From: Microcoleus vaginatus WJT46-NPBG5
GTDB taxonomy: Bacteria; Cyanobacteriota; Cyanobacteriia; Cyanobacteriales; Oscillatoriaceae
DNA length: 64,000 nt
Reading direction: 5' to 3'
Assembly (NCBI GenBank): GCA_019359355.1
Contig: JAHHHM010000015.1
Location: 45,147 to 109,146, forward strand
Part shown: positions 11,769 through 46,574 of the stretch, one piece after another
How positions within the stretch are numbered: the stretch's first letter is position 1
How the letters are laid out: every line of letters starts with the position of its first letter
The notes under the pieces: generated by a model
What the model was told of the DNA's origin: nothing
Database searches by the model: none
What the model saw: only the letters and a program-made list of their open reading frames with translations
Translations under genes and position numbers: made by a program

Positions 11769-12623
11769 TTGATAATGGGTTGTGCAAAAAGTTTGCTGAC
11801 TAGCTCTAATAAGGGTCGCATCTGGCTGATTGGAGGGACTCAGGAAAGTGCGACGCTGGCTAAAATTATTGCTCAGGAGCAATGGCCCTGTACAATTTCT
11901 GTAACGACGGAAGCAGCGATGGCTTTGTACCCACCGGCACCTCTGTTGCGTGTGCGGGTTGGCAAGTTGGACGCATTTCAGTTAGCGCAGTTTTTGCAGA
12001 GTGAGTCAATTTGTGCGATTTTAGATGCTTCCCATCCCTACGCGGTTGAGGTTTCTAAACTTGCGATTGCGACTGCTTGCCAATATCAAATTCCTTATCT
12101 GCGTTATGAACGCCCAAGGTTAGATTTAATCCCGCACGCCGATTATCCAAATTTTCCCGATCTTGGCTTAGAAAATTCTCAAATCTTCACCTGCTTAGAC
12201 AGTTTCGACACGCTGTTAAGAAGTGAAATTTTAACAGGACAGCGAGTGTTGCTAACTGTCGGATACCGGACTCTAGTTTTATTTCAACCTTGGCAGGATA
12301 AATGCACCCTATTTGCCCGGATTTTGCCTTCTGTGCCGGCCCTAGAGGCAGCTTTGGCGGCTGGTTTTACTCCTGATCGTTTGATTGCGCTGCGTCCGCC
12401 GGTTTCATTGGATTTGGAGAGATCCCTATGGCAGCAGTGGCAAATTTCTCTGGTGGTGACAAAGGCGTCTGGGGTTGCCGGTGGTGAGGATGTGAAGCGG
12501 ATCGTTGCCAGTGAGTTGGGTGTGCCGGTGGTGGTGATAGATAGGCCGGCTATTGAGTATCCGCAACAAACGAGTGATGTTGCAACAGCTATGGAATTTT
12601 GCCGGCAGCATCTTACTCTTTAA
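11769..12623 (+). CDS. cobK: Precorrin-6A / cobalt-precorrin-6A reductase-like protein (CobK/CbiJ family)
   Basis: 284 aa with IWLIGGTQESATLAKII near the N-terminus, resembling the CobK/CbiJ nucleotide-binding start; overall assignment by resemblance only. Confidence 0.45.
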   Translation: MIMGCAKSLLTSSNKGRIWLIGGTQESATLAKIIAQEQWPCTISVTTEAAMALYPPAPLLRVRVGKLDAFQLAQFLQSESICAILDASHPYAVEVSKLAIATACQYQIPYLRYERPRLDLIPHADYPNFPDLGLENSQIFTCLDSFDTLLRSEILTGQRVLLTVGYRTLVLFQPWQDKCTLFARILPSVPALEAALAAGFTPDRLIALRPPVSLDLERSLWQQWQISLVVTKASGVAGGEDVKRIVASELGVPVVVIDRPAIEYPQQTSDVATAMEFCRQHLTL

Positions 12624-12893
12624 CAGTCAGGGTAAACGCATCAAAATAATAGCTCAGATTATGCCTCCTCAGATGCAAGGAAAGGGGCAAGAATTTGTAG
12701 CATGAACTGGTCATCGAGTCCGGCTCTATAGCGTTTCATCGCTAAACTGCCCTTTGAGGGTTCCTGACGCAATAAGTTGAGGGCAAAACGACGCAGCAAG
12801 CTTAAGTTACGGGGTGCAGGGTCTTTGCGAACGCGAAAAGCATCTTCGTTGAAGACGACATCAAGGCACCAATGTAGATTGTCCTTGGCCAGA
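12621..12893 (-). mobile_element. C-terminal remnant (about 75 aa) of an ISAs1-family DDE transposase
   Basis: Minus-strand frame reads WVSLAKDNLHWCLDVVFNEDAFRVRKDPAPRNLSLLRRFALNLLRQEPSKGSLAMKRYRAGLDDQFMLQIL, matching the conserved ISAs1 tail (HW.LDV.F.ED.SR.R...AP.N...LRR.ALNLL...KR..A..D..FLL.IL). An in-frame TGA lies just upstream and the rest of the transposase is absent. Confidence 0.7.
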
Positions 12894-12914
12894 CTGACCC
12901 ATCATTGCCCAACC

Positions 12915-13022
12915 TTATCCTTGTGCCACAATCTCAATATCGAGTAGCGCAAGTGCCTGCACATAGAAGGCTTTACTCTGCTCAAAATCATTGATGGCAA
13001 AACCGATGTGGTCAAGGATCAT
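12915..13022 (-). pseudogene. Truncated N-terminus (35 aa) of a VOC/glyoxalase-family gene
   Basis: MILDHIGFAINDFEQSKAFYVQALALLDIEIVAQG* is a typical glyoxalase/bleomycin-resistance fold start; stop 20 nt before the IS remnant. Confidence 0.5.
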
Positions 13023-13529
13023 TACAACCTCCAAGCAAAACTAACGCTGTAGAAGTTGGAAGACAATGTTTCGTCCTAACTTCTGCTCATAGGCTAACTT
13101 GCCCCAAAGTTGCGCCAATGATTCGAGTAAACCAGAGTTGGCTAGTGAACCTGCATCGACTGATTCAACCCTACCAGCTTCTGCCCCTTTTCAATCACGA
13201 TTTGTCAACCCCTTAAACGGTTACCTTCTCAGACACTCTCTAACCTTTTTATACTACCGCAGGGGGAAGACGAACTATTAAAGACCAATGTACAATAACC
13301 AAGGGACTAAGAAAATACGAAATCGTAAGGTGTAATAAGCAAATTCCTGGAAACTACTTTGAATTTACTAATTAATAATCCTCCTCATCTGGCTAAACTA
13401 ATCTTTACAGAATCTTTTCTGATCTTTATAAGCGTAAGCAACAGCCAAATATTTAAGCGATTAAACATACTAGCGTGTGTTTAATTTTTTGTTGTTTTCT
13501 TATACTGGTGAGGTCTTAAAAGGTCGTTC

Positions 13530-14768
13530 ATGACTGTATTCTTGCTGACCTTGACAGGTTTCTATTTATATATTGCTTGGCTTCAGTTGGTTTATCTAGA
13601 CTTTCAGAAGCAACGAGACAAGATTGAGTGGCGAGTTCATGTGAATGGAATTAGAGGAAAATCCACTGTTACTAGGTATGTTACTGCGGTGTTTCGAGAG
13701 ACTGGATACCACACCTTTGGTAAAACCACAGGTAGTGCTGCTCGCATTTTGCGTCCTGACGGACAAGACTATGATTTTGGGCGCAAAGGATATCCAAACG
13801 TAAACGAACAGGTCAAAATGGTTAAGGACTTTAGCCGCCAGAAAGCAGAAGCAGCAGTACTGGAGTGTATGGCAGTGAATCCAGTCTATGCAAAGTGGTT
13901 GGAAGAAAAAGTGATGCGATCGCACATTGGCATTATTACTAATGTGCGTTATGACCATCCAGAATATATGGGAGAAACTCTAGAAGAAATTGCTGAATCA
14001 TTATCCAATACCATTCCTGAAAACGGCATTCTAATTACAGCAGAAACGGAACCTCGTCTGCTCAAGATTTTAAAGAAGAACGCTAAGCGCAAAAACTCCC
14101 TGTTGCTTGTTGCGGATGGACAAACAATAGATGTGAGTGATTTGGCAGGGTTTTCTCACTTTGCGATTGAAGAGAACATTGCCATTGGTTATGAAATTGC
14201 TAGGTTGCTAAAAATACCCAAAAATAGAGCCTTAAAAGCTATGCAGAATGCTGTCGCCGATCCGGGTGCTTTCAGCGTTCAATTTATCAAGTTTCAACAC
14301 TATCAAATTGCATGGGCAAATCTCTTTGCCGTGAATGATCGTGAGAGTTTCGTTCAACTCAGTCAAAAGCTATTTAAGCAATATCCAGAACATCAAAAAG
14401 TTGTCATCCTCAACAATAGACATGACCGCCCTGCTAGAGTAGAACTTTTTGCAAACTTAGCTCATGATTTAGAGTTTAATTGGGTTGTCACTCTTGGAGA
14501 TTACGAAGAAGAAGTTAACAGAGTATTTGATCGGGATAAGACGCGAGTTATTAATTTAGGACACTCCTCGAAATTTAAAGGTGCTTCAGCCACACAGCTT
14601 TTAACTCAAATTACTTCAAAAGCAAATTCAGAAAAAATCCTTTTGATTGGAACCGTTAACATCCATACCGATCAAGCTGAACTACTTCTACATTTCTTTG
14701 AAGAACAGCTTAATCTTGAGACAGCAGCTAGCACTGAGCCGGTTGAAGTAGAAAAAGTTGATGTTTGA
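13530..14768 (+). CDS. pgsB: Poly-gamma-glutamate synthetase catalytic subunit (PgsB/CapB, Mur-ligase-like amide ligase)
   Basis: N-terminal TM helix, then VNGIRGKSTVTRYV, GKTTGSAARI, NVNEQ, ECMAVNPVYA, IGIITNVRYDHPEYMGETLEEIAESLSNTIPENGILIT, DPGAFSV and FAVNDRES. These give block-by-block correspondence to Bacillus PgsB. Confidence 0.9.
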   Translation: MTVFLLTLTGFYLYIAWLQLVYLDFQKQRDKIEWRVHVNGIRGKSTVTRYVTAVFRETGYHTFGKTTGSAARILRPDGQDYDFGRKGYPNVNEQVKMVKDFSRQKAEAAVLECMAVNPVYAKWLEEKVMRSHIGIITNVRYDHPEYMGETLEEIAESLSNTIPENGILITAETEPRLLKILKKNAKRKNSLLLVADGQTIDVSDLAGFSHFAIEENIAIGYEIARLLKIPKNRALKAMQNAVADPGAFSVQFIKFQHYQIAWANLFAVNDRESFVQLSQKLFKQYPEHQKVVILNNRHDRPARVELFANLAHDLEFNWVVTLGDYEEEVNRVFDRDKTRVINLGHSSKFKGASATQLLTQITSKANSEKILLIGTVNIHTDQAELLLHFFEEQLNLETAASTEPVEVEKVDV

Positions 14769-15783
14769 GCTTCCGAATACACCTGAAATACATAGATTGG
14801 CACTGAATGTTGGTGCTTTTGTAGCGATAGCTTATAGAGATCGTTATGGAGTGATACCAGGAGGTGTAATTGTTCCTGGATTTATCATTGTTTTATCTTT
14901 ACTATCACCCATTTGGTGCATCACAAGCTTAGCGTTATCTTTTTTTGTTTACGTTATTTACAAACGTTTCTTACAACAAACAAGTTATAAACGTCGTACA
15001 CCGATGTATATTTTAGCGTTCCTTTCTTTAGCAATCGCTAATTCTATAGGACTGATATACATCAAGTTAGGTTGGTTATATCCTTCTTTAGACAGTCTAT
15101 CTGGAACTTTACTACCCGCTGTTATCGCTTTTACCTTAACTAAACAGAAGTTAAATAGAGTAGTCAGAGCAATAATTATTACTACTTTAATTACGTTTGT
15201 TATTCTTCTAGGAATCTACTCGATAGGTGCATCCTTATTTAATATAGATTTTGACACACTGAGAGCTTATTACCCTAGCAAAGAAATTTTGAAAATTCAT
15301 TATCATTTATTCCAATTTTATGTTGCTTTAGGTGTAAGCTATTTAATATATCGGTTCAAAGATATCCGTTCAGGTGGTTATATGGTAGCACCTGTAGCGG
15401 CAGCTCTATTCGTGAAACCAACAAGCGCCATACTTTTTTTGATTGGTTGTATTACCGTCTATTTAGTTGTCCAAACCATTTGTCAACTTACGTTGTTGAT
15501 AGGATTAAAACGCTATGTTGTGGCATTGTTCTTCAGTACTTTGTTTGTCTGGACTACAGAGTTTCTGTTTATAAATCTTGGTTTTGATATCCTGCCCTTT
15601 CAAGGGGGCAATCTTTTTGTAATTATTGCCATGATGTCGTATGTGAATGATAGTATTTTGTATGCAAACAAAAAAGTTATAAATTACATGACTTTGAATA
15701 TACTAACCGCATTAATTGCTCTTTTTGTAGCTAATACGGTATCAGCTTATTTAGTCCCCCTAGCAACTAAAATTTTGCAATAA
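14758..15783 (+). CDS. pgsC: PgsC/CapC-like membrane protein, tandem duplicated (two PgsC modules fused)
   Basis: Residues about 15-150 carry GVIPGGVIVPGFI, YKRRTP and LLPAVIAFTLTKQKL (Bacillus PgsC: GIVPAGLVVPGYL, YGRRKF, IVPGLIANTIQKQGL). The second half repeats the pattern as GGYMVAPVAAALFV, GLKRYVVALFFS, GGNLFVIIAMMSYVND. Overlaps the pgsB stop by 11 nt. Confidence 0.8.
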   Translation: MMFELPNTPEIHRLALNVGAFVAIAYRDRYGVIPGGVIVPGFIIVLSLLSPIWCITSLALSFFVYVIYKRFLQQTSYKRRTPMYILAFLSLAIANSIGLIYIKLGWLYPSLDSLSGTLLPAVIAFTLTKQKLNRVVRAIIITTLITFVILLGIYSIGASLFNIDFDTLRAYYPSKEILKIHYHLFQFYVALGVSYLIYRFKDIRSGGYMVAPVAAALFVKPTSAILFLIGCITVYLVVQTICQLTLLIGLKRYVVALFFSTLFVWTTEFLFINLGFDILPFQGGNLFVIIAMMSYVNDSILYANKKVINYMTLNILTALIALFVANTVSAYLVPLATKILQ

Positions 15784-15798
15784 AAAAGCGAGTTAACA

Positions 15799-17514
15799 AT
15801 GAACAAAAGAATTGAAGAAAAGAGGCAACATGAGCGTACTAATGAACCTGCTTTGGTACTCATTGAAGAACGCCAGTATAAGGTTGAAAACTGGAGTACA
15901 AATGGGTTCAAGATCGTTGGTTTCGATCAAGATGTGAAGACTGGTGATTGCTTGCCAATCCAGTTACAACTTAATCTGAACAAAGGTGGTAAGGAATTCA
16001 CTAATATTCAAATCACTACTCTAATTGAGGTGATTTGGTTATCTGCTCGCAAAGACAAATTTGGAGCGCACTTTCTCAATCTCACAAAGCTGGAAAAAGA
16101 TTTACTACAGGATACGATTGACCAGATACACAAAGGAAAAATCACGCTTCTAAATCAGCCTAATCAGCTTCCTGAACCTAGCTTTAGTAACTCTCAACGT
16201 TCTCAAGATTCTAATTCTTCATGGCAACCTTTGCGATCCAAGCGCGTACTCTACATCGGCATCTATGTAGTGATTGGGGGTGTTTTGGGATATTTTAGCT
16301 TACAAGCAGTTTATGATTCATTAACAAACTTGCAGATAAAATCAGCAGTTGTCGCTAAACCTACTGGGCCTGTAGTTTCTCCAGTTGAATCTGTAATTGT
16401 TAAAGAACAGGGAATTTTAGATGAGTTTTACGTTTATGAGGGTATGAATGTAAAGCCCGGACAGCCCTTATTCAGCATCAAAAATGATGAGTTAGCGGAA
16501 AGAGATATAGATGCTCTAACTCGGGAAATTCATTCGAGTCGGGTAGAGTTAGCTGAAGCTCAGGCTAATCTAAGAAAAGCTGAATTACTCAACCAACAAG
16601 AGATTGAAAAGCAGAAATCTTATCAAAAAATTAGTCAAACTGAACTTGATTCTGCTCGTGCAGAAGTTGCAGCCCAAACCGAACAACATCAAATAGCAAA
16701 AAAAGATTTAGAAAGATTTGCCAGCCTCGTTCAAGAAGGAGCCGTGAGCCAACAAGCATTTGAATCTACTCAATCTAGATTTGCTGATGTAGAAGCTAAG
16801 CTCAGAAAAGCCCAGTCTCAATATACAGTTGCTCAAATTTCAGTTGAATCTGCACAAAAGGGAAACTTTTACGATGGCGAGAACCTAATTAGTGACTTAC
16901 CCCGCTTTACAGTTGAAGTTGAAAAACAACGTCAACTTGTGCAGATAGCATCAGAAAAAGTTCGTGCTTCAGAACAATTGCTAAATCAACGAGTGCAAGA
17001 ACTGCAAATCTCTGAACCTCAACGCCAATATCTGCTACAGCCTTCGCAAGATAAAACCTTATTTTCTCGTAATTCTTTCTCTGTAGTGTATAAAGCTCCA
17101 ATTCCAGGGTCAGTCGTGAGAGTAACTAAGGCATCGGGTAATCCAGTGAGACCCCGCGAAACAGTCATGGTATTGCAACGAGAACAAGTATCGCCCACTA
17201 TTGATGCTTATTTAACCAAAGATCAAGCCGATCAAATTAGCATTGGCAAACCTGCTACAGTTCTCATTCCTACTATCAATGAAGAGTATCAAGCTCATAT
17301 TACTAAGATTGACCCAGCCATTTCAGCACCCAATTTAATGGGAATCACGCAAACCGAAGATTCAAATAGTAAGCCGGTCTATGTACAATTAACCCTTAAT
17401 AACCTATCCCCCGAAAACAATAATCAACTGATTGCAGCTCGCGGAATGCCTGTAATTCTCAGCATTCCTAAACAGACAAATTTATTTAATCGATTAGCCT
17501 TTTGGCTCAAGTAG
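15799..17514 (+). CDS. Alg44-like c-di-GMP receptor: N-terminal PilZ domain, one TM helix, periplasmic membrane-fusion (HlyD-like) domain
   Basis: PilZ motifs RQHER (aa 9-13) and NWSTNG (aa 31-36) fit RxxxR / (D/N)xSxxG. TM helix VLYIGIYVVIGGVLGYFSL near aa 150. Long coiled-coil stretch then a C-terminal beta-barrel-like region typical of HlyD/MFP proteins. Sits between pgsC and pgsA, 16 nt after pgsC. Confidence 0.75.
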   Translation: MNKRIEEKRQHERTNEPALVLIEERQYKVENWSTNGFKIVGFDQDVKTGDCLPIQLQLNLNKGGKEFTNIQITTLIEVIWLSARKDKFGAHFLNLTKLEKDLLQDTIDQIHKGKITLLNQPNQLPEPSFSNSQRSQDSNSSWQPLRSKRVLYIGIYVVIGGVLGYFSLQAVYDSLTNLQIKSAVVAKPTGPVVSPVESVIVKEQGILDEFYVYEGMNVKPGQPLFSIKNDELAERDIDALTREIHSSRVELAEAQANLRKAELLNQQEIEKQKSYQKISQTELDSARAEVAAQTEQHQIAKKDLERFASLVQEGAVSQQAFESTQSRFADVEAKLRKAQSQYTVAQISVESAQKGNFYDGENLISDLPRFTVEVEKQRQLVQIASEKVRASEQLLNQRVQELQISEPQRQYLLQPSQDKTLFSRNSFSVVYKAPIPGSVVRVTKASGNPVRPRETVMVLQREQVSPTIDAYLTKDQADQISIGKPATVLIPTINEEYQAHITKIDPAISAPNLMGITQTEDSNSKPVYVQLTLNNLSPENNNQLIAARGMPVILSIPKQTNLFNRLAFWLK

Positions 17515-19631
17515 TTCGCCCACTTTTTAGTATGCGTCAACTCTGTATTGCAACATTATCCATTGCACTCTTGTGTTCTGGATGTAAATTAACTTCAACT
17601 GTCTCATCACAGCCGAAAGAGGTAATTAAGGGTCGTGTTGTTAGCCTGGATGGAAAGCCTGTCATTGGAGCATTAGTCACAATATCATCTGGGCAAACCA
17701 AGACTGACTCAAATGGTTGGTTCCAGCTTGCAGTCGCCCAAGCCGATCCGCAATGGGTCACAGTTAAACATACTAGCTTTATTTCACGCACGAGAGCAGC
17801 AGACCCTAGTGCAACCGTGCTTATACGCTTAACGCCTAATGATGGTCAAACCATTGCCCTGCATTTTACCGGCGATGTCATGTTGGGACGCCGCTTCTAC
17901 GATCCCAATGAAGATGGCAACACCCGTGATGGTCTACTACAGCCCAACAGCGGAATTGATGAACACAAGGCACTATTTCAATATGTTCAGCCCCTCTTGG
18001 AGAATGCAGACCTCACTATCAGTAATCTGGAATCTCCCCTGACTAGCCAGCCTTATCTTAACCCTAAGCTTCGCCGCCCTCCACAATTCCATCAGACTAA
18101 AGAGTATGCCTTTGCCAGTGCCCCTATGGCTGCTCAAGCTCTACGTCATGTTGGTATTGATGTGATTGGTCTTGCTAATAACCATCTCTATGATGTGCTA
18201 GAGCAGGGAATTCAGGATACACAAGAGGCTCTTAACCAAGCAGGTTTCCAATCGGGGGTAGGGTACTTTGGTGCCGGTTCAACTGAGCAGCAAGCTTGGA
18301 CACCGGCAGTGGTTAACATACGTGGGCAAGCGGTCGCATTTCTTGGCTGTACTACCATTTCTGGTGCAGAACACCCAGAGACTTATGTTGTGTTAGATGC
18401 TCAGCGCAAAGGGGGAGCGGCAAGTTGCGATGAGAATCAAATTCGCAATTCAATTAGGTCAGCGCAAGCAAGGTATAAAACTGTAGTCTTCATGATTCAC
18501 GGCGGCAACGAGTACCAGCACACACCAAGTGAGAATTTACGCCGGCTGACAATTGCAGCTCGTGAGGCTGGCGCGACATTGGTCATCAATCATCACCCTC
18601 ATGTAGTGGGTGGCTTCAATTGGGATGGTTCATCGCTTGTGGCCTGGACGTTAGGCAACTTTCTTTTTGATCAAACTGTATGGCCGACGTTTGAGTCTTA
18701 CTTATTAGCGGTTCATCTACGAAATGGCAAAGTCGTGCAAGCCTACACTGAACCGCTGATGATAGATGGTTACTTACCGAAAGGCGTCACGGGCGAGCTC
18801 GCTGATTTTGTGGCTAGAGGTGCGGCAGGACGCGATCGCGGCCCCTTCTTAGTTGAAGATGGCGCAATGGAAATTGACGTGAATGATCGTAGAGTCCATC
18901 GCGATGTCACGCTGCCAATTAAAGCTAGTAAAGATAGTATTTTCCGGATGGATCAGGGATGGTGGGTAACCAACTTTTCTGGAACAGGTAGTTTGAGGTT
19001 AGGCCGGGATCTTTTGTGGGTCGGCGGGTTTGAAGATGAGATTGCAGATGAACAACACCAAGGCAAAGCACTTTGGGCATTTACAGGCGTTGACAAATTA
19101 GAAGGCGCTAAATATGCCTATGAAGGTAAAGGAGGAGTACGTCTTCAGCGAAAGGGATTTAATGAATCTGATGTTATTTTGTCGCCTATCCATCGAATTC
19201 TAGTTGAACCCGGTTCAGAACTATCGATAGTCGGAATGATGCGCTCTCGTAAGGATGTACAGTCTAGCTTACAAATCAGCTGGTACTCCCAGACCAGGGG
19301 AAAATCCCAGGCAAAGCAGATGAAACCGCTAATCGTCACACAAGACAATACATGGACACCTTTTCGTCTTAATGTGACGGTACCACGCAACACAGTTGCA
19401 CTTGGACTCTATTTGAGGCTGCAAGCTCCCAAGCAAGGCGAGGCAACAGCAGACTTCGATAATATTCGTATTATTAGGTGGCAGCCTCTAGGTACACCCT
19501 TCAGTCCGCTTTATAACTATGCCAAAGTAACTGGAACAGGAGAATTAACTTTACGCAAAGAGTTCTTACCAGGATCTGAGACATTGGTCAATCTCGACAA
19601 TCCGTCTCCATTAGATTTGTTACACCAGTAA
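17502..19631 (+). CDS. pgsA: PgsA/CapA-family metallophosphatase (PGA synthesis/anchoring subunit) with extra N- and C-terminal domains
   Basis: HFTGDVMLGRRFY, LFQYVQPLLENADLTISNLESP, GLANNHLYDVL, HGGNEYQHTP, INHHPHVVGGFNWDGSSLVAWTLGNFLFDQ mirror Bacillus PgsA. Preceded by a signal peptide ending LLCSGC and a carboxypeptidase-regulatory-like beta-sandwich; followed by a roughly 270 aa unassigned extension. Start overlaps the upstream gene by 13 nt; true start may be MRQLCIA at 17532. Confidence 0.85.
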   Translation: MAQVVRPLFSMRQLCIATLSIALLCSGCKLTSTVSSQPKEVIKGRVVSLDGKPVIGALVTISSGQTKTDSNGWFQLAVAQADPQWVTVKHTSFISRTRAADPSATVLIRLTPNDGQTIALHFTGDVMLGRRFYDPNEDGNTRDGLLQPNSGIDEHKALFQYVQPLLENADLTISNLESPLTSQPYLNPKLRRPPQFHQTKEYAFASAPMAAQALRHVGIDVIGLANNHLYDVLEQGIQDTQEALNQAGFQSGVGYFGAGSTEQQAWTPAVVNIRGQAVAFLGCTTISGAEHPETYVVLDAQRKGGAASCDENQIRNSIRSAQARYKTVVFMIHGGNEYQHTPSENLRRLTIAAREAGATLVINHHPHVVGGFNWDGSSLVAWTLGNFLFDQTVWPTFESYLLAVHLRNGKVVQAYTEPLMIDGYLPKGVTGELADFVARGAAGRDRGPFLVEDGAMEIDVNDRRVHRDVTLPIKASKDSIFRMDQGWWVTNFSGTGSLRLGRDLLWVGGFEDEIADEQHQGKALWAFTGVDKLEGAKYAYEGKGGVRLQRKGFNESDVILSPIHRILVEPGSELSIVGMMRSRKDVQSSLQISWYSQTRGKSQAKQMKPLIVTQDNTWTPFRLNVTVPRNTVALGLYLRLQAPKQGEATADFDNIRIIRWQPLGTPFSPLYNYAKVTGTGELTLRKEFLPGSETLVNLDNPSPLDLLHQ

Positions 19632-19864
19632 GGGAGGGTTAAAAAAACTTCCTACCAGCTCAAAGCGAGATTTGAAAAAGATGAATTTGGATTTTCACAT
19701 GCTCTAGAAGAGCTATAGCGATACTTTTTAGAATTTGAACGGGGTGTAGGGAGAATCCCATGCGTAGGGCAAAGCTATGCCCCCTTTTCACAACTTATCT
19801 CTGATCGCCATAAATCGTGAAAGCTATCTCTCACCTGGAGCTTATGTTATGAGGTTACAACAAT

Positions 19865-31068: not shown

Positions 31069-31845
31069 CTAAAACACTTGAAAATCAGACGAATCAAGGT
31101 CTGAAGCACTCACCCGATAGATAACCGCTAAATACTCGCCAGTTCTGGTAACTTGAATCACAGAATCTCTTGAATCCGTAGGGCTAGTCGCAATCGTTAA
31201 ATCCCTAACAGTTAAACCATTCGTTAACCCAATCCGATCTCGACCCACCTGAAAGTCCTCAATTAAATCATAACCTGTACCATTTGCAAATAAAAATAGA
31301 TCATTACCATTGCCTCCATTCATATCATCTTGACCAAAACCAGCAATCAGCGTGTCGTCACCATCTTCACCACTCATAAAGTCATTGCCGAAATCGCCGG
31401 ATAGCAGATCATTACCTGATGCCCCGTAAAGAAAATCGTCATTTTGACCGCCGTTTAGGGTATCATTGCCGGCACCGCCCTCAATATCATCATTGCCGAT
31501 ATTGCCATTGAGATAGTCGTTGCCGTCCTCTCCATAAACCTGATCATCGCCTTGCCCGCACAAGAGAATATCGCTGCCGGCACCGCCATAAATTACATCA
31601 TTTCCCTGATTCCCAAACACCCAATCATCGCCCGGATTGCCTTCAAAATAATCGTCTCCATCGAAGCCGATTAATGTATCGTTATTTTCTCCGCCGAATA
31701 CGTTATCATTGCCTTCAGCCGCCTCGATATAATCATTTCCATCCTGCCCGTAGAGGATATCATCGCCTTGAAAGCCGCGAACCAAGTCAGCTTGGGCGCT
31801 GCCTTCGAGCCGGTTGTTGCTATTATCTCCGAATAAATCTGCCAT
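31069..31845 (-). CDS. Small RTX-type calcium-binding repeat protein
   Basis: 258 aa dominated by GxxGNDxL nonapeptide repeats; ends with the same post-RTX module (TGEYLAVIYRVSASDLDSSDFQVF) as the 22272 protein. Confidence 0.7.
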   Translation of the reverse strand: MADLFGDNSNNRLEGSAQADLVRGFQGDDILYGQDGNDYIEAAEGNDNVFGGENNDTLIGFDGDDYFEGNPGDDWVFGNQGNDVIYGGAGSDILLCGQGDDQVYGEDGNDYLNGNIGNDDIEGGAGNDTLNGGQNDDFLYGASGNDLLSGDFGNDFMSGEDGDDTLIAGFGQDDMNGGNGNDLFLFANGTGYDLIEDFQVGRDRIGLTNGLTVRDLTIATSPTDSRDSVIQVTRTGEYLAVIYRVSASDLDSSDFQVF

Positions 31846-35747: not shown

Positions 35748-38700
35748 GTGATGCAACTGAACAAGCTGTCTTTCAATTGGCCCACTATAGAATCGGCAAT
35801 TAACCGGCTTCCTTTGCGCGTTGCCTCTGACACGCCGGTGCTAGATGTCTTGGGGCTGATGAGCCAATCTCAGCAACCCGAACAAGTTGTGCTGGCAGAG
35901 TTCAACCGTCAACCGCTTTCACGGGGTATTTTTACTCAGGCAGATGTACTGAAGCTAATTGCTGCCGGCAGAAATTTAGCACAAGTCAAGCTAGGCGAAG
36001 CGATTGATCAACCGGCAGTTACTCTGACGCTGACTGATCATCAAGATATTTCCACTGCCGTATCGTTATTACACCGGCATCGGGTTGATAAACTGCCGAT
36101 TTTGGACAATTCTGGCGCATTGATCGGCGCAATCACGCCGGAAACCATTCTGCAAGTGGTGGAAGGGGCTGATCTCCTTAAGGGGGTGCCCGTTGAGGCA
36201 GTGATGTCAAGGCAGATCATAACCGCGCCAATGAATGCGCCGGTGCAGAAGATTGCTCAACTGATGATAAAACATCAAGTCAGTTGGGTTGCCATCGCCT
36301 CAGAAAGCGAATCGGCAGATATGCAGCCAATCCCACTAGGAATTATTACAGAGTCGGACATCGTGCAAGCTGGGGTGCAATTGCTCGATCTCGCCACAAC
36401 ACCGGCTTGTGCACTGATGAGAATGCCGGCAAATATCCTAACTCCACAAGATTCTCTGCTGGCAGCGTATCAGCAATTACAACACCGGCAGCCGGTTTTT
36501 GTCACGGCGCGAGAAAATATTCAGGAAATTTTGCTGGGGACTGTTACAGCAATTGACTTGCTTCAAATTTTTGAGCCGGCGCAAACATACAAAATTGTAA
36601 AAATCTCTCAGCCTGCCGGTGTTCAACTTCAACCTAAAAGAATTGAAGTGCTGTTGCGTCGCAACAACGAATTCACAAAACATCTGCAACAGCGTGTAGC
36701 CCATGCCCAAGCGAACTTCCGGCAAGTTCAGCAAGAATCTCAAAAACTGAAGCGACAAGCCCAGCAAACCCGAATGCTTGAGTGTATTAGCAAAGCTATC
36801 CGCAAGCAAGTTCCCTTGGATGACATTCTGCAAACAACCGCCAACCAGCTGCAAAAAGCGCTCGAAGCTAGCCGCTGCCTGATTTTTTGGCCAGATTCCC
36901 GCCATCAGATGGTGACTTGCCAGATGTCAGAAACGACAGCCCAACCTGACAGTCTTGCCGGCACCCATTGTAATTTTTCTGGGAATTATCACCCAACTTT
37001 AGCGCAAGGCGAACCCCTCATTTTGCCGCGCATTGATGACTCGCTAGCGCCGGCACTTCAGCAATCCGCTAATGAGTGTGGCATTCGCGCACTTTTGATT
37101 GTGCCCCTGATCGGGCAGCAATCTTATTTAGGCGAGATCGCCTTGCATCAGTGCGAGGGTGAACGAATCTGGGATTCAGATGAAGTAAGATTTGTCAAGT
37201 CACTTGCAGATCGATGCGCCCTCGCCATCGAGCAAGTCCAACTCAGTGAGCAGGTGCAAACCGCACAGCGGGATAGACAACGGGTGGAAAAGTCTTTGCA
37301 AGAAAGCGAAGCCAAATATCGCAGCATCTTCGAGAATGCGATTGAAGGCATCTTCCAAACCACACCGGATGGAAGCTACATCAGCGCTAATCCTAGCCTC
37401 GCCGGCATTTATGGCTACAACTCGCCGGCAGAACTCATTGCCAACCTCACAGATATTGGACGGCAGCTATACGTCGATCCAGCGCGACGCGACGAGTTCA
37501 TGGCACTCATACAAGAGGACGGGAGTGTATCCGAGTTTGAGTCTCAAGTTTATCGCGCTGACGGCAGCATCATTTGGATTTCCGAGAATGCCCACGCTGT
37601 AAGGAATGCCGAGGGCGCACTGCTTTACTGCGAAGGCACTGTTCTGAATATTAGCAAGCGCAAGCAGGCGGAATTGGCTTTAAAAGAACAACAAGAGTTT
37701 CTGCGTCAGGTCATTGATACCAACCCAAATTTGATTTTTGTTAAAGATTGGGAAGGAAAATTTACCTTAGTCAACCAAGCACTTGCCAATATTTATGAAA
37801 CAACGGTTGAAGATTTACTCGGCAAGAAAGATGCAGATTTTAATTTGAATACCGCAGAAGTTGAAGAGGTTTTGGCTGCTGATCAACAAGTTATGAGCGC
37901 ATTGCAGCCTAAAATTATTGCAGAAGAAACTGTTAGCAGTCCCAATGGAAAGGTTCGCTGGTTTCAAACCATTAAGACACCGCTGCTATCTCCAGACGGT
38001 CAAGCCCGTCATATCCTCGCTGTTTGCAACGATATCACCGAGCGCAAGCAAACTGAGAAAGCACTGCAAGAGTCAAAGCAGATGCTGCAATTAGTGATGG
38101 ATAACATTCCGCAGCTAATATTCTGGAAAGATAGAAATTCTGTTTATTTGGGTTGCAACCGTAACTTTGCACGCGCTGCCGGTGTCGGGACTCCTGAAGA
38201 AATTGCCGGCAAAACAGATTACGATTTGGCCTGGAAAAAAGAGGAATCTGACTGGTTCCGCGAGTGCGATGCGCGTGTGATGGAGACCGATACGCCCGAA
38301 TTCCATATCATCGAAACCCAGCGTCAAGCGGATGGCAAAGAATCTTGGGCAGATACGAATAAAATTCCCCTGCATGACAGTGCCGGCAATGTGGTAGGAA
38401 TTATCGGCACTTATGAGGATGTTACGTTTATTAAACAGGCAGAAGAAGCACTGCAAAAAGTCAACCAAGCCTTAGAACTACGGGTGCAAGAGCGCACAGC
38501 AGAGTTGAGCGAGACGAACGAACAATTACGCAGGGAAATTGCCGAAAAATTGCAGGTGGAAGAAGCACTGCGAAAATCAGAAGATCGCTTTCGCAATTTG
38601 ATTGAAACGACTAGCGACTGGGTGTGGGAAATTGATGAAAATGCTGTCTACACCTACGCCAGCCCTAAAGTGCGCGACCTGTTGGGCTACGAACCTGAAG

Positions 38701-41429
38701 ATGTCCTGGGTAAAACACCTTTTGACTTAATGCCTTCAGAAGAGGCTTTTCGCGTTTCTACGATTTTTGGGCCGCTGGTTGCAACTCAACAGCCCTTACT
38801 CTGTGTGGAAAACACAAACATTCACAAAGATGGCCGGCAGGTTATTCTTGAAACCAGTGGAGCGCCAGTTTTTGATGCAGAGGGGGTGTTCCGGGGTTAT
38901 CGCGGCATGGATCGCGATATTACCGACCGCAAACGGGCAGAGGCGGCCCTGCGAGAAAGTGAGGAACGTTATCGGTTGATGGCCGATCATGCGACTGATA
39001 TGATTGGCCGGCATACCCCAGAGGGCGTTTATCTCTACACCTCGCCGGCGTGCCGCACCTTGCTAGGATACGAGCCAGAGGAACTTGTGGGACACTCGGC
39101 GTATGAGTTTTTCCACCCAGAAGATGTGCCGACTATCCAAACGTGCCAAGCCAACATCCTAGAGCAGCCGGATACCTATACCGTCACCTATCGCATCCGC
39201 CGCAAAGATAATCGTTATATCTGGTTTGAATCCACCGGCAGGAGTGTTCGCAACCCAGACACTGATGAGGTTGAGGCACTTGTAACCGTTTCTCGCGATG
39301 TCACCGAGCGCAAGCAAGCAGAAGAGGCGCTGCGTGAGAGTGAGTTGCGGCTGCGGCTGGCGCTAAAGGTGGCGCAGATGGGTACTTGGGATTGGAATGC
39401 TGAAATTGGAAGGATCACTTGGTCTGAGAAAACCGAATCAATTTTTGGGTTTGCACCCGACACATTCCCTGAAACTTGGGAGGCTTATTTCACTCGTATC
39501 CATCCAGAGGATCGCGAGTATCTCAATGAGGCGATCTCTGGCAGTTGGGAGGAAAGAAAATCCTATGATGTCGAACATCGCATTCTTTGGCCCGATGGTA
39601 GCCTCCGCTGGGTTGCTGCTAAGGGTCACGTTCTGTGTCACCCGACAGGCCGGACTGTGGGAATGAGTGGGGTGGTGATGGACATTACTGAGCGCAAGCA
39701 GGCTGAGGAGGCGCTACAGCGACAGTTAGCGGCGGTGGAAGCGGCAATGGATGGCATCGCTATTCTTAATAGTGAAGGTAAATATATCTACATGAATGCC
39801 GCTCACGTCAAAATATTTGGATATGACAGCGTCAGTCAACTTGCCGGCAAAACATGGCAAGAAATTTATTACCCAGATGAAATTAAGCGATTCGAGGTCG
39901 ATATTTTACCCGGACTTTGGCAAAAGGGAAATTGGCAAGGAGAAGCAACGGGCAAAAAACACAATGGCACGACATTTTTAGCAGACGTTTCCCTAACTGT
40001 CATTGCAGATGGTGGGTTAATTTGTGTCTGTCGCGACCTCAGTGAGCGCAAGCAGGTGGAGGAGATTTTAAAAGTACAGGAACGGGCAATTGCAGCCAGC
40101 AGCAATGGAATTGCGATTTCCGATGCCAGATTACCGGATACACCGTTGATTTATGTTAATCCTGCTTTCGAGCGCATGACGGGTTACAGCGCAGCAGAAG
40201 TCATTGGAAAAAATTGCCGTTTTCTGCAAGGCAGAGAGACTAATCAAGTAGGTTTAAAAGAAGTGCGGCGTGCGCTTAAAGAAGGCAAAGAGTGCAGCGT
40301 TATTTTACGCAACTACCGCAAAGATGGATCTTTATTTTGGAATGAGTTAAGCGTTGCACCCATTTACGATGATCGCGGCAATCTCACTCACTTTATTGGC
40401 ATTGAAACAGACATTACTGAGCGCAAGCAAGCAGAGGAAGCGCTACAGGCTGCTAAGGCTCAATTGCGGGCGGTTTTAGATGCTGTGCCGGGTTTTGTTT
40501 CTTGGATAAGTTCAGATTTGCAATATCTCGGTGTGAACCGGCATCTGGCTGCTGCTGTTAATTTGTCTCCAGAAGCGTTTGCCGGTCAAGAACTCGGCTT
40601 TTTTGAGAGTGGCTTAGCGTTTGGTGAATTTATGCGTCAGTTTTTTGCCGGTTCTAAGCTAGCCGCCAACCAAGTGATTGACGCACAAGTGAATGGTAGC
40701 CGGCGCAGTTACCTGATCGCCGCTCAGAAATACCAGGAAGGCGCTGCTGCTGTCTCGGTGGCGATTGATATTACCGAACGCCAACAGGCACAGGAGCAAC
40801 TAAAAGTTTCCCTGAAAGAGAAAGAGGTGCTGCTTAAAGAAATTCACCACCGGGTTAAAAACAATTTGCAGATTATTTCCAGTCTGCTTAAGTTGCAATC
40901 GTCATACCTTAAGGATATTGAGGCGCAGACGCTGTTTAAGGACAGCTACAACCGGGTTCGTTCAATGGCGCTCATACATGAAAAATTGTATCGCTCCTCT
41001 GATTTAGCTAAAATTGATTTAGCCGACTATATCCGCAACCTCTTAGGAAATTTATTTAGTTCCTATGGGGTTTCTTCCCAGGCGATTGAGTTGAAATTAA
41101 AGGTGGATAATATTTCACTTGATGTTGATACAGCAATTCCTTGTGGATTAATCATTAATGAATTGGTTTCTAATTCTATTAAATACGCATTTACCCCTGG
41201 CTTACGTGGGAAAATTTGTGTTGAATTTTACTTAAAAAGAGAAAATGAATATATTTTACTGATCAGCGATAATGGAGTAGGTTTGCCTTCAGGCTTTGAT
41301 TTAGAGCAAACCGATTCATTAGGGTTGCAGTTGGTTTTTAATTTGGCTGAACAACTTGGAGGAAGCATTAATTTAAATACAGATAATGGGACTAAATTTA
41401 AAATTAAATTTGAAAAAATTAATAAATAG
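35748..41429 (+). CDS. Multi-sensor signal transduction histidine kinase (CBS pair, GAF, about 8 PAS/PAC, HisKA_2/HWE-type kinase core)
   Basis: 1893 aa; repeated PAS-linker motif [12 protein letters not shown] about 8 times; phospho-acceptor block [15 protein letters not shown] typical of HisKA_2; C-terminal ATPase G-boxes (DNGVGLP, GLQLV). Confidence 0.85.
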
Positions 41430-41438
41430 GAACGAATA

Positions 41439-42542
41439 ATGGCTAAGGCAAGTATTATTATCGTCGAAGACGAGAGAATCATTGCTCTCGATCTAAAGAA
41501 TAGTTTAAAGAATTTAGGATATGCGGTGGCTGCCATTGTTTCTTCTGGAGAAAAAGCGATAGAGAAAGTTGCTGAAATTCATCCAGATTTAGTGTTGATG
41601 GATATTATGCTGCAAGGAAAAATGGATGGCGTAGAAGCGGCTGAAGTGATTCGCACACTCTATCAGGTTCCCGTGGTATTTTTAACTTCTCATACGGATG
41701 AAACAACTTTAGAAAAAGCCAAAAAAACTCAACCTTTTGGCTATATTGTCAAGCCTTTTGAAGAAAGAGATTTACACACCACTTTAGAGATTGCTTTGGC
41801 AAGAGCCAAGGCGGAAGCAGAAGTTTGTAAAGCGTTGGAAAAAGAAAAGGAACTGAATGAGCTGAAGTCTCGCTTTGTCTCGATGGTTTCCCATGAGTTC
41901 CGTACTCCCATGTCTACGATTCTTTTTTCCGCGACTTTACTGGAAAATTATGGAAATCGATGGACAGAGGAGAAAAAAGTCACTCATTTACATCGAATTC
42001 AAATCGCTATCAAGCAGATGACTGAAATGTTAGATTACATTTTGGTGATTGGTCAAGCGGATGCCGGCAAACTAGAATTTAACCCAACTTGTGTAGAGTT
42101 AAAAAAATTTTGCGGAGAAATCATGGAAGAAATGCAACTCACCACGGAGCATCAGCACCCCATCGATTGGATTTGCCAAGGGGACTGTACTGAAGCCAAA
42201 GTGGATGAAAAACTGCTACGACATATTCTCAGTAATTTGCTTTCTAATGCCATTAAGTATTCTCCCCCAAACAGCCCGATTAAGTTTGAACTCACCTGTG
42301 AGAAGGATCAGGCAGTTTTTCACATTGAAGACAAAGGGATCGGTATTACCGCAGAAGATCAAAAACGTCTGTTTGAGACTTTCCACCGAGGAACAAACGT
42401 TGGGACTATTTCTGGAACCGGCCTGGGATTGGCCATTGTTAAAAGAGCTGTGGACTTGCACGGTGGGGAGATATCGTGTCAAAGTGAAGTGGGTGCCGGC
42501 ACTGCATTTACTGTGACGCTGCCAATGAGAAACCATGTTTAG
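41439..42542 (+). CDS. Hybrid response regulator / histidine kinase (REC-HisKA-HATPase)
   Basis: REC with D at MDIML, H-box SHEFRTPMSTI, G-boxes GIGITAEDQ and GTGLGLAIVK. Starts 10 nt after the big kinase. Confidence 0.8.
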   Translation: MAKASIIIVEDERIIALDLKNSLKNLGYAVAAIVSSGEKAIEKVAEIHPDLVLMDIMLQGKMDGVEAAEVIRTLYQVPVVFLTSHTDETTLEKAKKTQPFGYIVKPFEERDLHTTLEIALARAKAEAEVCKALEKEKELNELKSRFVSMVSHEFRTPMSTILFSATLLENYGNRWTEEKKVTHLHRIQIAIKQMTEMLDYILVIGQADAGKLEFNPTCVELKKFCGEIMEEMQLTTEHQHPIDWICQGDCTEAKVDEKLLRHILSNLLSNAIKYSPPNSPIKFELTCEKDQAVFHIEDKGIGITAEDQKRLFETFHRGTNVGTISGTGLGLAIVKRAVDLHGGEISCQSEVGAGTAFTVTLPMRNHV

Positions 42543-42566
42543 TTTGGAGCTTTCCCACTCTGAAAA

Positions 42567-43289
42567 ATGAAAAAAATCTTAGTAATTGAAGACGAAGAAG
42601 TGGTTCGCACTAACATTTTAGAATTATTAGATGCAGAAAATTTTGAGGCGCTTGAGGCAAGTAATGGCCTGCTAGGCATTCAGTTAGCGCAAAAAAATTT
42701 GCCCGATTTAATTATTTGCGACATTATGATGCCAAACCTTGATGGTTATGCCGTTTTGGCCGCTTTAAGAAGTGAGCCGATGACGGCTACAATTCCCTTA
42801 ATTTTTCTCACTGCTAAAGATGACAGAAGTTCTACGAGAAAAGGAATGGAGTTAGGAGCAGACGATTATTTAACGAAACCATGTACTGCAAATGAATTGC
42901 TAAAAGCGATTTCAATTCGCCTAGAAAAACACGCTGCTTATAAGCAACAGTACGCGGTTGAACGAGAGCGAGCCAAAGGGCTGCAGCAAAGAGTACGAGA
43001 GCTTCAGCAGGTAAATACTACCGCAGAAGATTTGCTCCACAGCCTTTCTCAGGAATTGCGCGATCCGCTGTCGAATATCACGATGGCAATTCAGATGCTA
43101 AAAATTGCTCCAACTGAAGAAGCTCGCACTCGCTATCTCAAAATTTTGCAAGAAGAGTGCGCCCGCGAAATTGCCATCATTAACCAGCTTGCGAACTTGC
43201 AAGATTTGCTCACGCCTGAAAATGTTAAGCTGCTGAGTCGAATAAATTTTATCAGAACGTTTAATTCTAATTCAAATTCCAGTTTGTAG
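42567..43289 (+). CDS. Response regulator (REC) with C-terminal coiled-coil / degenerate HisKA-like segment
   Basis: REC MKKILVIEDEEVVRTNILELL...CDIMMPNLDG...TKPC; C-terminal region has H-box-like LSQELRDPLSNI without an ATPase domain. Confidence 0.7.
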   Translation: MKKILVIEDEEVVRTNILELLDAENFEALEASNGLLGIQLAQKNLPDLIICDIMMPNLDGYAVLAALRSEPMTATIPLIFLTAKDDRSSTRKGMELGADDYLTKPCTANELLKAISIRLEKHAAYKQQYAVERERAKGLQQRVRELQQVNTTAEDLLHSLSQELRDPLSNITMAIQMLKIAPTEEARTRYLKILQEECAREIAIINQLANLQDLLTPENVKLLSRINFIRTFNSNSNSSL

Positions 43290-43363
43290 TATTCTTAGAG
43301 AAAATTGCCGAAAGTTTAAGTGAATTGAGCGAAGTTGAACTTTGTTAAAAATTTACAAGAAGT

Positions 43364-45136: not shown

Positions 45137-45311
45137 ACAATGATGAGTCATGAGCGAATAACTAAGGGTAGAACTTCTCAAATTTGTAATGAGCAATGAG
45201 CAACTGATCGTTATACAGGAGAAGATTCGTATGGGATAAATTTAAAAACAGATTCAGAGGTTGATTTTCCCTTAATTATGACCCTACTAACTAACAAATG
45301 ATAGCCAACAA

Positions 45312-46400
45312 ATGATCAAAATTTTAATCATTGAAGACGAAAGTGAAATCCGCGAGAACATTATAGAATTGCTTGAGGCGGAAAATTTCAAAGCAATCGG
45401 GGCGGAAACCGGCAAAATTGGCCTCAAACTGGCTGCCGAGCATTTGCCAGATTTAATTTTGTGCGATGTGATGATGCCAGAAATTGATGGTTATGCCGTA
45501 CTGGAAGCATTGCGTCAAGATCCACTGACAGCAACAATTCCCTTCATTTTTCTGACTGCTTTTGCTGACAAAGCACAAACTCGGAAGGGAATGGAACTGG
45601 GTGCAGACGATTATGTATCCAAACCGTGTAGCATTAAAGAATTGCTGAGAACAATTACCACTCGGCTCGAAAAGCAAGCAGCCATTGAGCGGCAACAAAC
45701 CCAAAAGCTTGAGAAATTACGCAGTAATATTATTTTATCGTTGCCCCATGAACTGCGAACTCCCCTGAATGGAATTCTTGCTTTTTCAGAACTTCTTCTT
45801 GAGGATTACGAATCTCTCGAAAGGTCAGAAGTTCAAGAAATGTTAGAGCATATTTATCGATCTGGAAAGCGATTATATCGGCTGACTCAAAATTTTTTGC
45901 TGTATGCCGAACTTGAGCTAATTGCCACCGATCCAGAAAGAGTCAAAGGACTGAAAAACAGCGAGACAAGTTTTGTCAAGAGCATTATTAAAAATGCTGC
46001 GGCTACTCACGCTAAACAAGTCTGTCGCGCCACCGATCTGCATTTAGATATTGAAGAAACAAGCGTGAAAATATCACCAGAGCGACTGATGAAACTCGTT
46101 GAAGAACTAGTGGATAATGCTTTTAAGTTTTCCGAAACCGGCACACCCGTGAAAGTTGCTAGCCGCATTGAAAATAATCAGTTTATTTTATCTGTCACGA
46201 ATCAGGGACGGGGTATGAAAGCGCAACAAATTGCTGAGGTGGGAGCTTATATGCAATTTGAGCGTAAGATATATGAACAGCAAGGCACGGGGTTAGGGCT
46301 AAGCCTCTCTAAACGCTTAGCAGAATTACACGGAGGGGGATTAACGATTGAGAGTGTACCTGATCAAGAAACCACAGTTTTTGTAACGCTTCCCTGCTGA
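45312..46400 (+). CDS. Hybrid response regulator / histidine kinase (REC-HisKA-HATPase)
   Basis: Third paralogous REC (MIKILIIEDESEIRENIIELLEAENF), H-box LPHELRTPLNGI, G2 GTGLGLSLSKRLAELHGG. Confidence 0.8.
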   Translation: MIKILIIEDESEIRENIIELLEAENFKAIGAETGKIGLKLAAEHLPDLILCDVMMPEIDGYAVLEALRQDPLTATIPFIFLTAFADKAQTRKGMELGADDYVSKPCSIKELLRTITTRLEKQAAIERQQTQKLEKLRSNIILSLPHELRTPLNGILAFSELLLEDYESLERSEVQEMLEHIYRSGKRLYRLTQNFLLYAELELIATDPERVKGLKNSETSFVKSIIKNAAATHAKQVCRATDLHLDIEETSVKISPERLMKLVEELVDNAFKFSETGTPVKVASRIENNQFILSVTNQGRGMKAQQIAEVGAYMQFERKIYEQQGTGLGLSLSKRLAELHGGGLTIESVPDQETTVFVTLPC

Positions 46401-46574
46401 AGAGTGCCGGTTTTAACTTCTCTTATTTTTTTGTGGGTTTCTTTTTTCAAGGTGTTAATTTCTTGTAAAATTGCAGTCTAAATCATAATTTAATATCACA
46501 GGCAATGCCCATATATGCTCCGCCAACGTAAAATAAGGGATTGGAAGTTTCTAGCCTAAGTCCCCCAATAAAAA

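Follow-up and report, generated by a model that had tools for sequence, protein, structure and literature searches.

A PilZ and membrane fusion protein encoded within a cyanobacterial pgs operon is a candidate Alg44-family co-polymerase of a poly-γ-glutamate-type synthase

We examined a 64,000-nucleotide stretch of DNA from Microcoleus vaginatus WJT46-NPBG5 (contig JAHHHM010000015.1, positions 45,147 to 109,146; hereafter the window), and in particular a gene whose product joins a PilZ domain to a transmembrane (TM) helix and a membrane fusion protein (MFP) region. The gene for this PilZ-MFP protein belongs to five tightly packed open reading frames (ORFs) on the plus strand at 13530-20695, which encode, in order, the poly-γ-glutamate (PGA) ligase subunit PgsB, a tandem CapC-CapC form of PgsC, the PilZ-MFP protein, a PgsA protein with a PGA_cap domain, and a papain-like putative hydrolase, orf276 (Table 1). 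The initial annotation of this DNA had placed the gene between pgsC and pgsA, and the CapC and PGA_cap matches confirm both flanks. The junctions needed some adjustment. The gene does lie directly downstream of pgsC, separated from it by 15 nucleotides rather than 16, while the proposed 13-nucleotide overlap with pgsA holds only for the mechanical TTG start of that gene (17502). The likelier pgsA start is the ATG at 17532 (M11), which precedes a signal or lipobox-like sequence, MRQLCIATLSIALLCSGC (LLCSGC), and leaves a gap of 17 nucleotides.

The genes flanking the PilZ-MFP gene are recognizable as those of a PGA-type synthase. PgsB scores 320.7 bits on the TIGR04012 equivalog (cut-off 222.7, E = 1.1e-95), and consists of a short membrane anchor at its N-terminus (residues 3-21) with a Mur-ligase-type domain on the cytoplasmic side. 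The pgsC gene overlaps the end of pgsB; its mechanical start is a TTG at 14758, and the ATG at 14761 is the likelier one. PgsC matches PF14102 with 69 bits against a threshold of 27, and because the N-terminal half (6.1e-19) and the C-terminal half alone (29.6 bits, gathering score 27) each match separately, the protein is read as a tandem CapC-CapC fusion. This internal duplication was missed by BLASTP and became apparent on scanning the halves against CapC. On the NCBIfam PgsC equivalog the protein falls below the cut-off (37.4 against 96.45). PgsC of Bacillus is 149 amino acids long, and the tandem form may amount to two membrane subunits joined covalently as a pseudo-dimer. A PgsC of approximately 330 amino acids is common to about 120 protein clusters, and all of the named ones are cyanobacterial. 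PgsA contains PGA_cap (PF09587, 7.7e-57, 193 bits) and CarboxypepD_reg (8.1e-9), together with a C-terminal region of roughly 300 amino acids for which the Pfam scan gave no match.

At its N-terminus, the PilZ-MFP protein carries the two motifs that the initial annotation had read at residues 9-13 and 31-36, RxxxR (R9QHER13) and [DN]xSxxG (N31WSTNG36). The Pfam PilZ profile (PF07238) matches residues 7-107 below its gathering score but over nearly its full length (model positions 1-100 of 102, E = 0.001-0.003), and 15 of 16 sampled N-termini from the family also match it (E ≤ 1), the best with an E of 6.7e-6. A confident AlphaFold2 (AF2) model of residues 1-116, built from the family alignment and with a predicted local distance difference test (pLDDT) score of 85.8, shows a β-barrel followed by a helix, which is the PilZ fold of a six-stranded β-barrel and a C-terminal helix. 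The closest structures to this predicted domain are all PilZ domains bound to cyclic di-GMP (c-di-GMP), and Alg44 is the best of them. The lack of a PilZ fold in residues 1-120, which the initial annotation had named as grounds for abandoning its proposal, is thus not what the prediction shows.

The database search returned 34 near-full-length homologues with 35-96% identity, one of them truncated at the N-terminus (434 amino acids), beside which there are two shorter relatives from Synechococcus. In the family alignment, where the mean column identity is 49%, R13, W32 and G36 are invariant and S33 is nearly so, and these positions hold across sequences that are just 35-40% identical overall. 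RxxxR is intact in 29 of the 33 full-length members, [DN]xSxxG in 30, and both motifs in 26. At the level of sequence, this conservation supports a functional c-di-GMP binding site. A profile made from the PilZ domains of the pgs clade alone (A2) found nothing significant in the Protein Data Bank (PDB). When the profile was widened with the sister family described below (A4), Alg44 was the sole significant PDB match (2.4e-9), with the RxxxR of the family aligned on QRQFAR of Alg44 and [DN]WSxxG on DLSAGG.

A variant of the protein is found in Synechococcus metagenome-assembled genomes (L007/L008, 8001-9497; P0035 and P0036), where the pgs genes are rearranged and include one for a 498-amino acid MFP. 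The N-terminal domain of this MFP has retained the sequence GDCL, is without RxxxR and [DN]xSxxG, and aligns with PilZ collinearly and weakly (hhalign E = 0.011). By sequence, this is apparently a degenerate PilZ domain, a variant that is naturally blind to c-di-GMP. The loss of the motifs would be in keeping with the small number of c-di-GMP enzymes in picocyanobacteria.

Following the PilZ domain is one hydrophobic segment (residues ~150-171 by hydropathy), which corresponds to the single TM helix of the AF2 model. The basic sequence RSKR precedes this helix, which fits an N-in orientation with the PilZ domain in the cytoplasm. The rest of the protein is built from a lipoyl/barrel-sandwich domain, a long α-helical hairpin with helices at residues 230-312, 318-353 and 367-413 in the AF2 model, and a β-barrel; reckoned at ~1.5 Å per residue, the hairpin would be on the order of 120 Å long. 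HlyD_3 matches this region above its threshold (2.4e-7, 31.9 bits against 22.2). The NCBIfam DevB (1.2e-16), RND-MFP and type I HlyD models match it at 1e-16 to 4e-12, all far below their cut-offs, and a Foldseek search with the full-length model returned EmrA (4TKO, 1.5e-16), MacA (7e-12) and HlyD (5C21, 2.5e-10). The lipoyl domain, hairpin and β-barrel behind an N-terminal membrane anchor make up the fold of a membrane fusion protein, and the combination of a cytoplasmic PilZ domain, a single TM helix and a periplasmic MFP-like domain is the layout of Alg44. Profiles, hydropathy, AF2 and Foldseek thus agree with the order of parts in the initial annotation, whose long coiled-coil and C-terminal β-barrel-like region correspond to the hairpin and β-barrel of the model. 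The whole-protein model has a low predicted template modelling (pTM) score (0.33), since it does not define how the domains are oriented to one another.

Linkage to pgs genes extends beyond the window. We collected 15 other loci, from four species-representative genomes, three metagenome contigs, seven exact-protein look-ups and one complete plasmid; these represent about 10 distinct lineages, many on short contigs, and are a modest sample of co-occurrence. In every one of the 15, pgsB and/or pgsC lies directly beside the PilZ-MFP gene (tblastn, plasmid annotation), and the PilZ-MFP homologues are 31-96% identical and all from cyanobacteria. Since pgs genes co-occur at every other locus, an outcome that would have told against the initial annotation, membership in an unrelated efflux-adaptor family without pgs neighbors, is not what was found. 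No conserved ABC, MFS or RND neighbor gene is present among the 15 loci; in L009/L010 alone, a divergent ABC exporter gene stands ~1 kb upstream of pgsB. Across nine distinct loci, the proteins rank alike in their identity to those of the window (Spearman rho of 0.95 for PgsC and MFP, and 0.87 for PgsB and MFP), which fits the inheritance of pgsB, pgsC and the MFP gene as one unit, in which the MFP diverges fastest. The linkage holds across several gene orders (Table 1), and the stable core is thus PgsB, the double PgsC and PilZ-MFP, with PgsA exchangeable. About half of the loci have no pgsA and carry a different gene in its place, that of protein X. CapA is likewise treated as accessory in models of the PGA capsule (PMC5542703).

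Protein X is 344-384 amino acids long and 47-68% identical between loci. In the clade without PGA_cap, its gene has pgsC on one side and the PilZ-MFP gene on the other, and in L009/L010 it lies downstream of pgsA. Invariant motifs include PH..FD.FSEEI, GAHRNANG, ADVC and WQIHGF, and searches found no Pfam match at E ≤ 10, no PDB sequence match, and no similarity to PgsA or orf276. Protein X could take over the function of PgsA or work alongside it, or it may be a hydrolase. A “metallophosphoesterase” encoded downstream in the locus of Chroococcidiopsis thermalis was considered as a cryptic PgsA and rejected, its similarity being limited to the superfamily motif. Within the protein X clade, L006 has a REC-GGDEF gene two genes upstream of pgsB (1224-2651); this is a single occurrence, and the gene is a possible local source of c-di-GMP.

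The last gene of the operon, orf276, has no match in the Pfam scan, and its product carries the catalytic-cysteine motif DCSGF with a GH further on. Homologues show weak NLPC_P60 and CHAP matches, and they accompany the cassette in L002, L007, L011 and L015. One homologue adjoins the MFP gene in Synechococcus (2e-13), as others do in L002, L011 and L015, and in L003 the next gene after the cassette is a genuine NLPC_P60 gene. The orf276 product is probably a divergent amidase of the NlpC/P60-CHAP clan that acts on the polymer. In Bacillus, the γ-glutamyl hydrolase PgdS is encoded downstream of pgsBCAE, and as orf276 and its relatives hold the same downstream place, a γ-glutamyl product is supported.

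The cassette is also found in a cultured organism, C. thermalis PCC 7203 (WP_015163217 to WP_015163220; NC_019699.1 342204-347386, L021), where pCHRO.01, a conjugative plasmid of 371 kb, carries it. In a metagenome-assembled genome of the Chroococcidiopsidaceae, it is surrounded by relaxase, integrase and transposase genes (L003, 3142-4137 and 14244-15833). With a plasmid location, relaxase, integrase and transposase genes nearby, and insertion sequence elements flanking several loci, the cassette looks mobile.

Table 1. Features of the pgs operon in the window, and gene orders and protein X genes at other cyanobacterial loci (L numbers).
Feature	Location	Strand	Basis or remark
pgsB, PgsB ligase subunit	13530..14768	+	TIGR04012, Mur_ligase_M, hydropathy
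pgsC, double length, 340 aa, polytopic membrane protein	14761..15783	+	PF14102 in both halves
PilZ-TM-MFP gene, candidate Alg44-family co-polymerase/adaptor	15799..17514	+	ATG start, 571 aa
PilZ domain, predicted cytoplasmic, residues 1-111	15799..16131	+	β-barrel 18-92, C-terminal helix 97-111
Single transmembrane helix, residues 148-176	16240..16326	+	hydropathy, AF2 helix, sequence
Periplasmic MFP region, residues 177-571	16327..17511	+	HlyD_3, DevB-family MFP, Foldseek matches
pgsA/capA-like, 699 aa from ATG	17532..19631	+	PGA_cap, CarboxypepD_reg, N-terminal sequence
orf276, secreted/anchored papain-like candidate γ-glutamyl hydrolase, 276 aa	19865..20695	+	DCSGF...GH motif
Order pgsB-pgsC-MFP-pgsA(-orf276)	L002, L009/L010, L011		as in window
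MFP-pgsA alone visible	L001		2-kb fragment
Order pgsB-pgsC-X-MFP	L003-L006, L013, L014, L021		no PGA_cap gene
Order MFP-pgsB	L012		
Order pgsC-pgsB divergent from pgsA-MFP-orf276-like	L007/L008		Synechococcus
Protein X	L003 8890-9936		
Protein X	L004 8799-9953		
Protein X	L005 6901-7935		
Protein X	L006 6930-7970		
Protein X	L021 7882-8925		
Protein X	L009 12940-14253		

The origin of the PilZ-MFP protein was traced by an exhaustive search with the family profile over 1.84 billion representatives, which retrieved 188 proteins at E ≤ 1e-30, most of them 520-550 amino acids long and matching from the PilZ domain through approximately profile position 405. This is a large PilZ-TM-MFP sister family whose matches span profile positions ~5-405, from PilZ across the TM helix into the greater part of the MFP region, at E values of 1e-40 to 1e-108. 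Its named members are from Myxococcota, Acidobacteriota and Pseudomonas marincola, and their PilZ motifs are canonical, (R)RxxxR and DWSLGG. In two of the three sister loci examined, the next gene downstream of the PilZ-MFP gene encodes a Glyco_tranf_2_3 (Alg8/BcsA-type) synthase, and in the remaining one it encodes a polysaccharide lyase. Genes for UDP-glucose/GDP-mannose dehydrogenase or polysaccharide lyase are near all three, and no pgs genes are near the family members in these three loci; such surroundings are those of Alg44-type co-polymerases. Single members show further arrangements: P0161 (738 amino acids) has three tandem PilZ domains before the TM-MFP part, and some members (among P0161, P0170, P0174 and P0310; 870-1047 amino acids) end in a fused domain that resembles alginate lyase (PF05426).

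Because the family profile retrieves this sister family, the likeness to Alg44 can be taken as homology, established directly for the PilZ domain by the A4 profile match and for the whole protein by way of the sister family and its glycosyltransferase family 2 (GT2) association. The Alg44-like identity given in the initial annotation therefore stands. On sequence grounds, the pgs-linked proteins of cyanobacteria form a branch within the Alg44-like family whose present partner is an amide-ligase synthase, not a glycosyltransferase. There is no GT2 glycosyltransferase gene in the operon that could encode an Alg8-like partner, and the protein is thus classed as Alg44-like in its working and wider family and not as a component of alginate synthesis.

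Taking these observations together, we consider that the gene probably encodes an Alg44-family co-polymerase and export adaptor recruited to a PGA-type synthase. In the mechanism proposed here, the PilZ domain would lie on the cytoplasmic side of the membrane, as would the ATP-dependent ligase domain of PgsB. Binding of c-di-GMP to PilZ through R9xxxR13 and N31xSxxG36 would license polymerization and translocation by the PgsB-PgsC(-PgsA) complex; such gating is proposed by analogy with Alg44. The periplasmic MFP part would oligomerize above the synthase and join it to an outer-membrane factor, probably of the TolC type and encoded at an unlinked site, giving the anionic polymer a path across the periplasm and the outer membrane of this diderm cell. 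This conduit is proposed in parallel with the XcsA-XcsB-TolC model for cellulose (PMC12430437). The downstream papain-like hydrolase would then trim or release the polymer. A wider interpretation, to which we give even chances, is that PilZ-TM-MFP is a portable second-messenger gate and periplasmic conduit that has been attached to chemically unrelated synthases. PGA would then be the first c-di-GMP-gated non-polysaccharide exopolymer, and a synthase-MFP-TolC route would lead across the diderm envelope.

Several observations weigh against the assignment as a c-di-GMP-gated co-polymerase and adaptor. The PilZ score of the window protein (18.4-19.5 bits) is below the Pfam gathering score of 22.5, four family members are without the first arginine and three have an altered [DN]xSxxG, and the residue aligned to Alg44 R95 varies in the family. 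In Synechococcus, both motifs are gone and the MFP gene is still part of the pgs locus, which points to an adaptor role without c-di-GMP in some lineages. The distant pgsB-pgsC loci of Crinalium and Okeania are without a PilZ-MFP homologue in the available DNA, and PilZ-MFP is therefore accessory rather than universal; a Snowella contig that ends right after pgsC is uninformative on this point. Lastly, neither the locus nor the rest of the 64-kb window contains a gene for an OEP/TolC outer-membrane factor. The low Pfam score, the variable R95 position, the Synechococcus clade and the absence of one of the two motifs in seven of the 33 members would all be expected if the protein were a genuine pgs export adaptor whose PilZ domain does not sense c-di-GMP, and instead only docks or scaffolds PgsB/PgsC or binds another ligand. 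PilZ domains that do not bind are known, for example XC1028 (3DSG). Such an adaptor is unlikely here, given that R13, W32 and G36 never vary, and S33 hardly does, at such low overall identity, that most members have both motifs intact, and that the nearest structures of the domain are all bound to c-di-GMP.

It is also conceivable that the MFP is part of an unrelated efflux or type I secretion system with its transporter encoded elsewhere, in which case the location among pgs genes would be meaningless for the polymer. Database names such as “HlyD family efflux transporter periplasmic adaptor” and “multidrug resistance efflux pump” would suit this explanation, as would the DevB, RND and type I models among the top NCBIfam matches, the ABC exporter gene of L009/L010, and the two genes for RTX proteins, type I substrates, in the window (22272-25376 on the plus strand and 31069-31845 on the minus strand). 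We regard it as very improbable, since the adjacency to pgsB/pgsC persists at all 15 loci despite four gene orders and identities as low as 31%, no conserved transporter neighbor accompanies the gene, the NCBIfam scores are far under their cut-offs, the sister family pairs with polymer synthases and not pumps, and the MFP co-diverges with PgsC. A further alternative accepts the module as proposed and questions the product, which might be another or a modified polyamide rather than classical γ-PGA; this question is independent of the gating mechanism. The tandem PgsC with its score of ~37 bits against an equivalog cut-off of ~96, the extra domains on PgsA, and protein X in place of PgsA in about half of the loci could each be signs of a different product, and no report of γ-PGA from a cyanobacterium was found in the literature searched, which was mostly outside subscription journals. 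We think a different product quite unlikely, because PgsB exceeds its curated equivalog cut-off by ~100 bits and an NlpC/P60-type hydrolase accompanies the cassette. Hydrolases of this type cleave γ-glutamyl bonds, as PgdS does in Bacillus. CapA, moreover, is regarded as non-essential to PGA production in certain bacteria (PMC5542703).

To our knowledge, the well-studied cases in which c-di-GMP acts directly on exopolymer synthases (BcsA for cellulose, Alg44 for alginate, PelD for Pel and PgaCD for PNAG) always concern polysaccharides. In the literature searched, mostly outside subscription journals, we found no paper that ties PilZ, HlyD or post-translational c-di-GMP control to PgsB/PgsC, and no description of the arrangement, in which the initial annotation had seen a possible, previously undescribed control point. 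The parts are all of known kinds, and it is their combination that is new. In the RefSeq database, the C. thermalis PCC 7203 orthologue is labelled “HlyD family efflux transporter periplasmic adaptor subunit”. A phylum-wide survey in 2015 reported no cyanobacterial protein with the PilZ and HlyD_3 architecture of Alg44 (PMC4594306); these proteins were likely missed because their PilZ domains lie near or below the Pfam threshold. In Bacillus velezensis, transcription of the PGA gene ywtB was unchanged in c-di-GMP mutants (PMC9589206).

If the proposed function of PilZ-MFP is correct, direct control by c-di-GMP would extend to a polypeptide-like polymer, and the Alg44 module would be independent of polymerase chemistry. 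It would also offer a testable route for γ-PGA out of cells of the Gram-negative type, for which the Bacillus model has no outer-membrane route. Two systems lend themselves to such studies: the cultured C. thermalis PCC 7203, which carries the cassette, and the Synechococcus degenerate-PilZ variant, which is a natural control. Microcoleus vaginatus is a key builder of soil crusts, where a regulated, anionic, water-binding polymer would matter ecologically, and a switchable PGA secretion module in phototrophs would be of biotechnological interest.

Elsewhere in the window, the Rfam gathering scan of the whole sequence gave no match, so that no known c-di-GMP riboswitch is present upstream of the operon. 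A promoter and terminator scan of 12600-22300 performed no better than shuffled sequence and was of no help in setting the limits of the operon. The 900-nucleotide gap 5′ of pgsB likewise has no Rfam family and no promoter signal above background, and contains minus-strand ORF fragments (12640-13030) that look like the remnants of a disrupted gene. The degenerate-GGDEF/EAL gene that the initial annotation had located at 43364-45136 is real and encodes a REC-GGDEF-EAL protein. We considered it as a dedicated partner of the operon and rejected it, as it lies 26 kb away in a separate phosphorelay cluster and its GGDEF motif reads NADQF. With a degenerate GGDEF and an intact EAL, the protein is probably a phosphodiesterase. 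The signalling cluster in which it resides (35748-47483) encodes a 1893-amino acid CBS-GAF-multi-PAS histidine kinase, REC-HisKA-HATPase, REC-HisKA, REC-GGDEF-EAL and REC-HisKA-HATPase proteins. The genes for the two RTX-repeat proteins are not far from the operon. One of these proteins, of 1034 amino acids, combines HemolysinCabind repeats with right-handed β-helix (pectate-lyase-like) domains and could be a secreted enzyme that modifies polymers, or else a type I substrate. A protein of the bacterial archaeo-eukaryotic release factor-like group (baeRF family 3/7/6) is encoded at 50204-51409, and baeRF proteins are often found in conflict or ribosome-rescue systems.

The PilZ-MFP protein and its operon can be compared with several known systems. 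DevB, HlyD and EmrA MFPs have the same periplasmic fold and a single N-terminal TM anchor. The window protein departs from them in scoring far below the cut-offs of the curated models, in having no conserved ABC, MFS or RND neighbor and no OEP/TolC gene in the window, and in its additional N-terminal PilZ domain. The operon resembles the Bacillus PgsBCA(E)/CapBCADE system in its PgsB equivalog, CapC-type subunit, PGA_cap protein and a downstream hydrolase gene like pgdS. The Bacillus system, however, has no PilZ domain and no MFP, and works in a monoderm envelope, whereas in the window PgsC is in tandem form, PgsA has added domains, and no PgsE was identified.

Alg44 of Pseudomonas aeruginosa, for which PilZ structures are available (4RT0, 4XRN), has 389 amino acids, compared to 571 for the window protein, and the latter is set apart by its long EmrA/HlyD-like helical hairpin. 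The R95 position of Alg44 is not conserved in the window family, and the locus encodes no outer-membrane parts of the AlgK/AlgE type. Alg44 partners the GT2 enzyme Alg8 to make a polysaccharide, while the partners here are the ATP-dependent amide ligase PgsB and a CapC-type subunit, for a putative polyamide. Alginate polymerization requires the binding of c-di-GMP to the PilZ domain of Alg44 (PMC4594306). The sister family (for example MEW5850737.1 from Myxococcota and MBI2840573.1 from Acidobacteriota) is homologous to the window protein and has GT2 and lyase neighbors instead of pgs genes. Finally, an XcsA-XcsB-TolC tripartite system, with an HlyD-like XcsB, has been proposed for cyanobacterial cellulose (PMC12430437, which cites Maeda et al. 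2018). It shares with the module proposed here a cyanobacterial synthase, an HlyD-like MFP, a hydrolase, an unlinked TolC-type channel and c-di-GMP input through PilZ. In the Xcs system, the synthase carries the PilZ domain and the MFP is without it. In the window, it is the MFP that carries PilZ, next to a synthase of a kind other than the glycosyltransferases.

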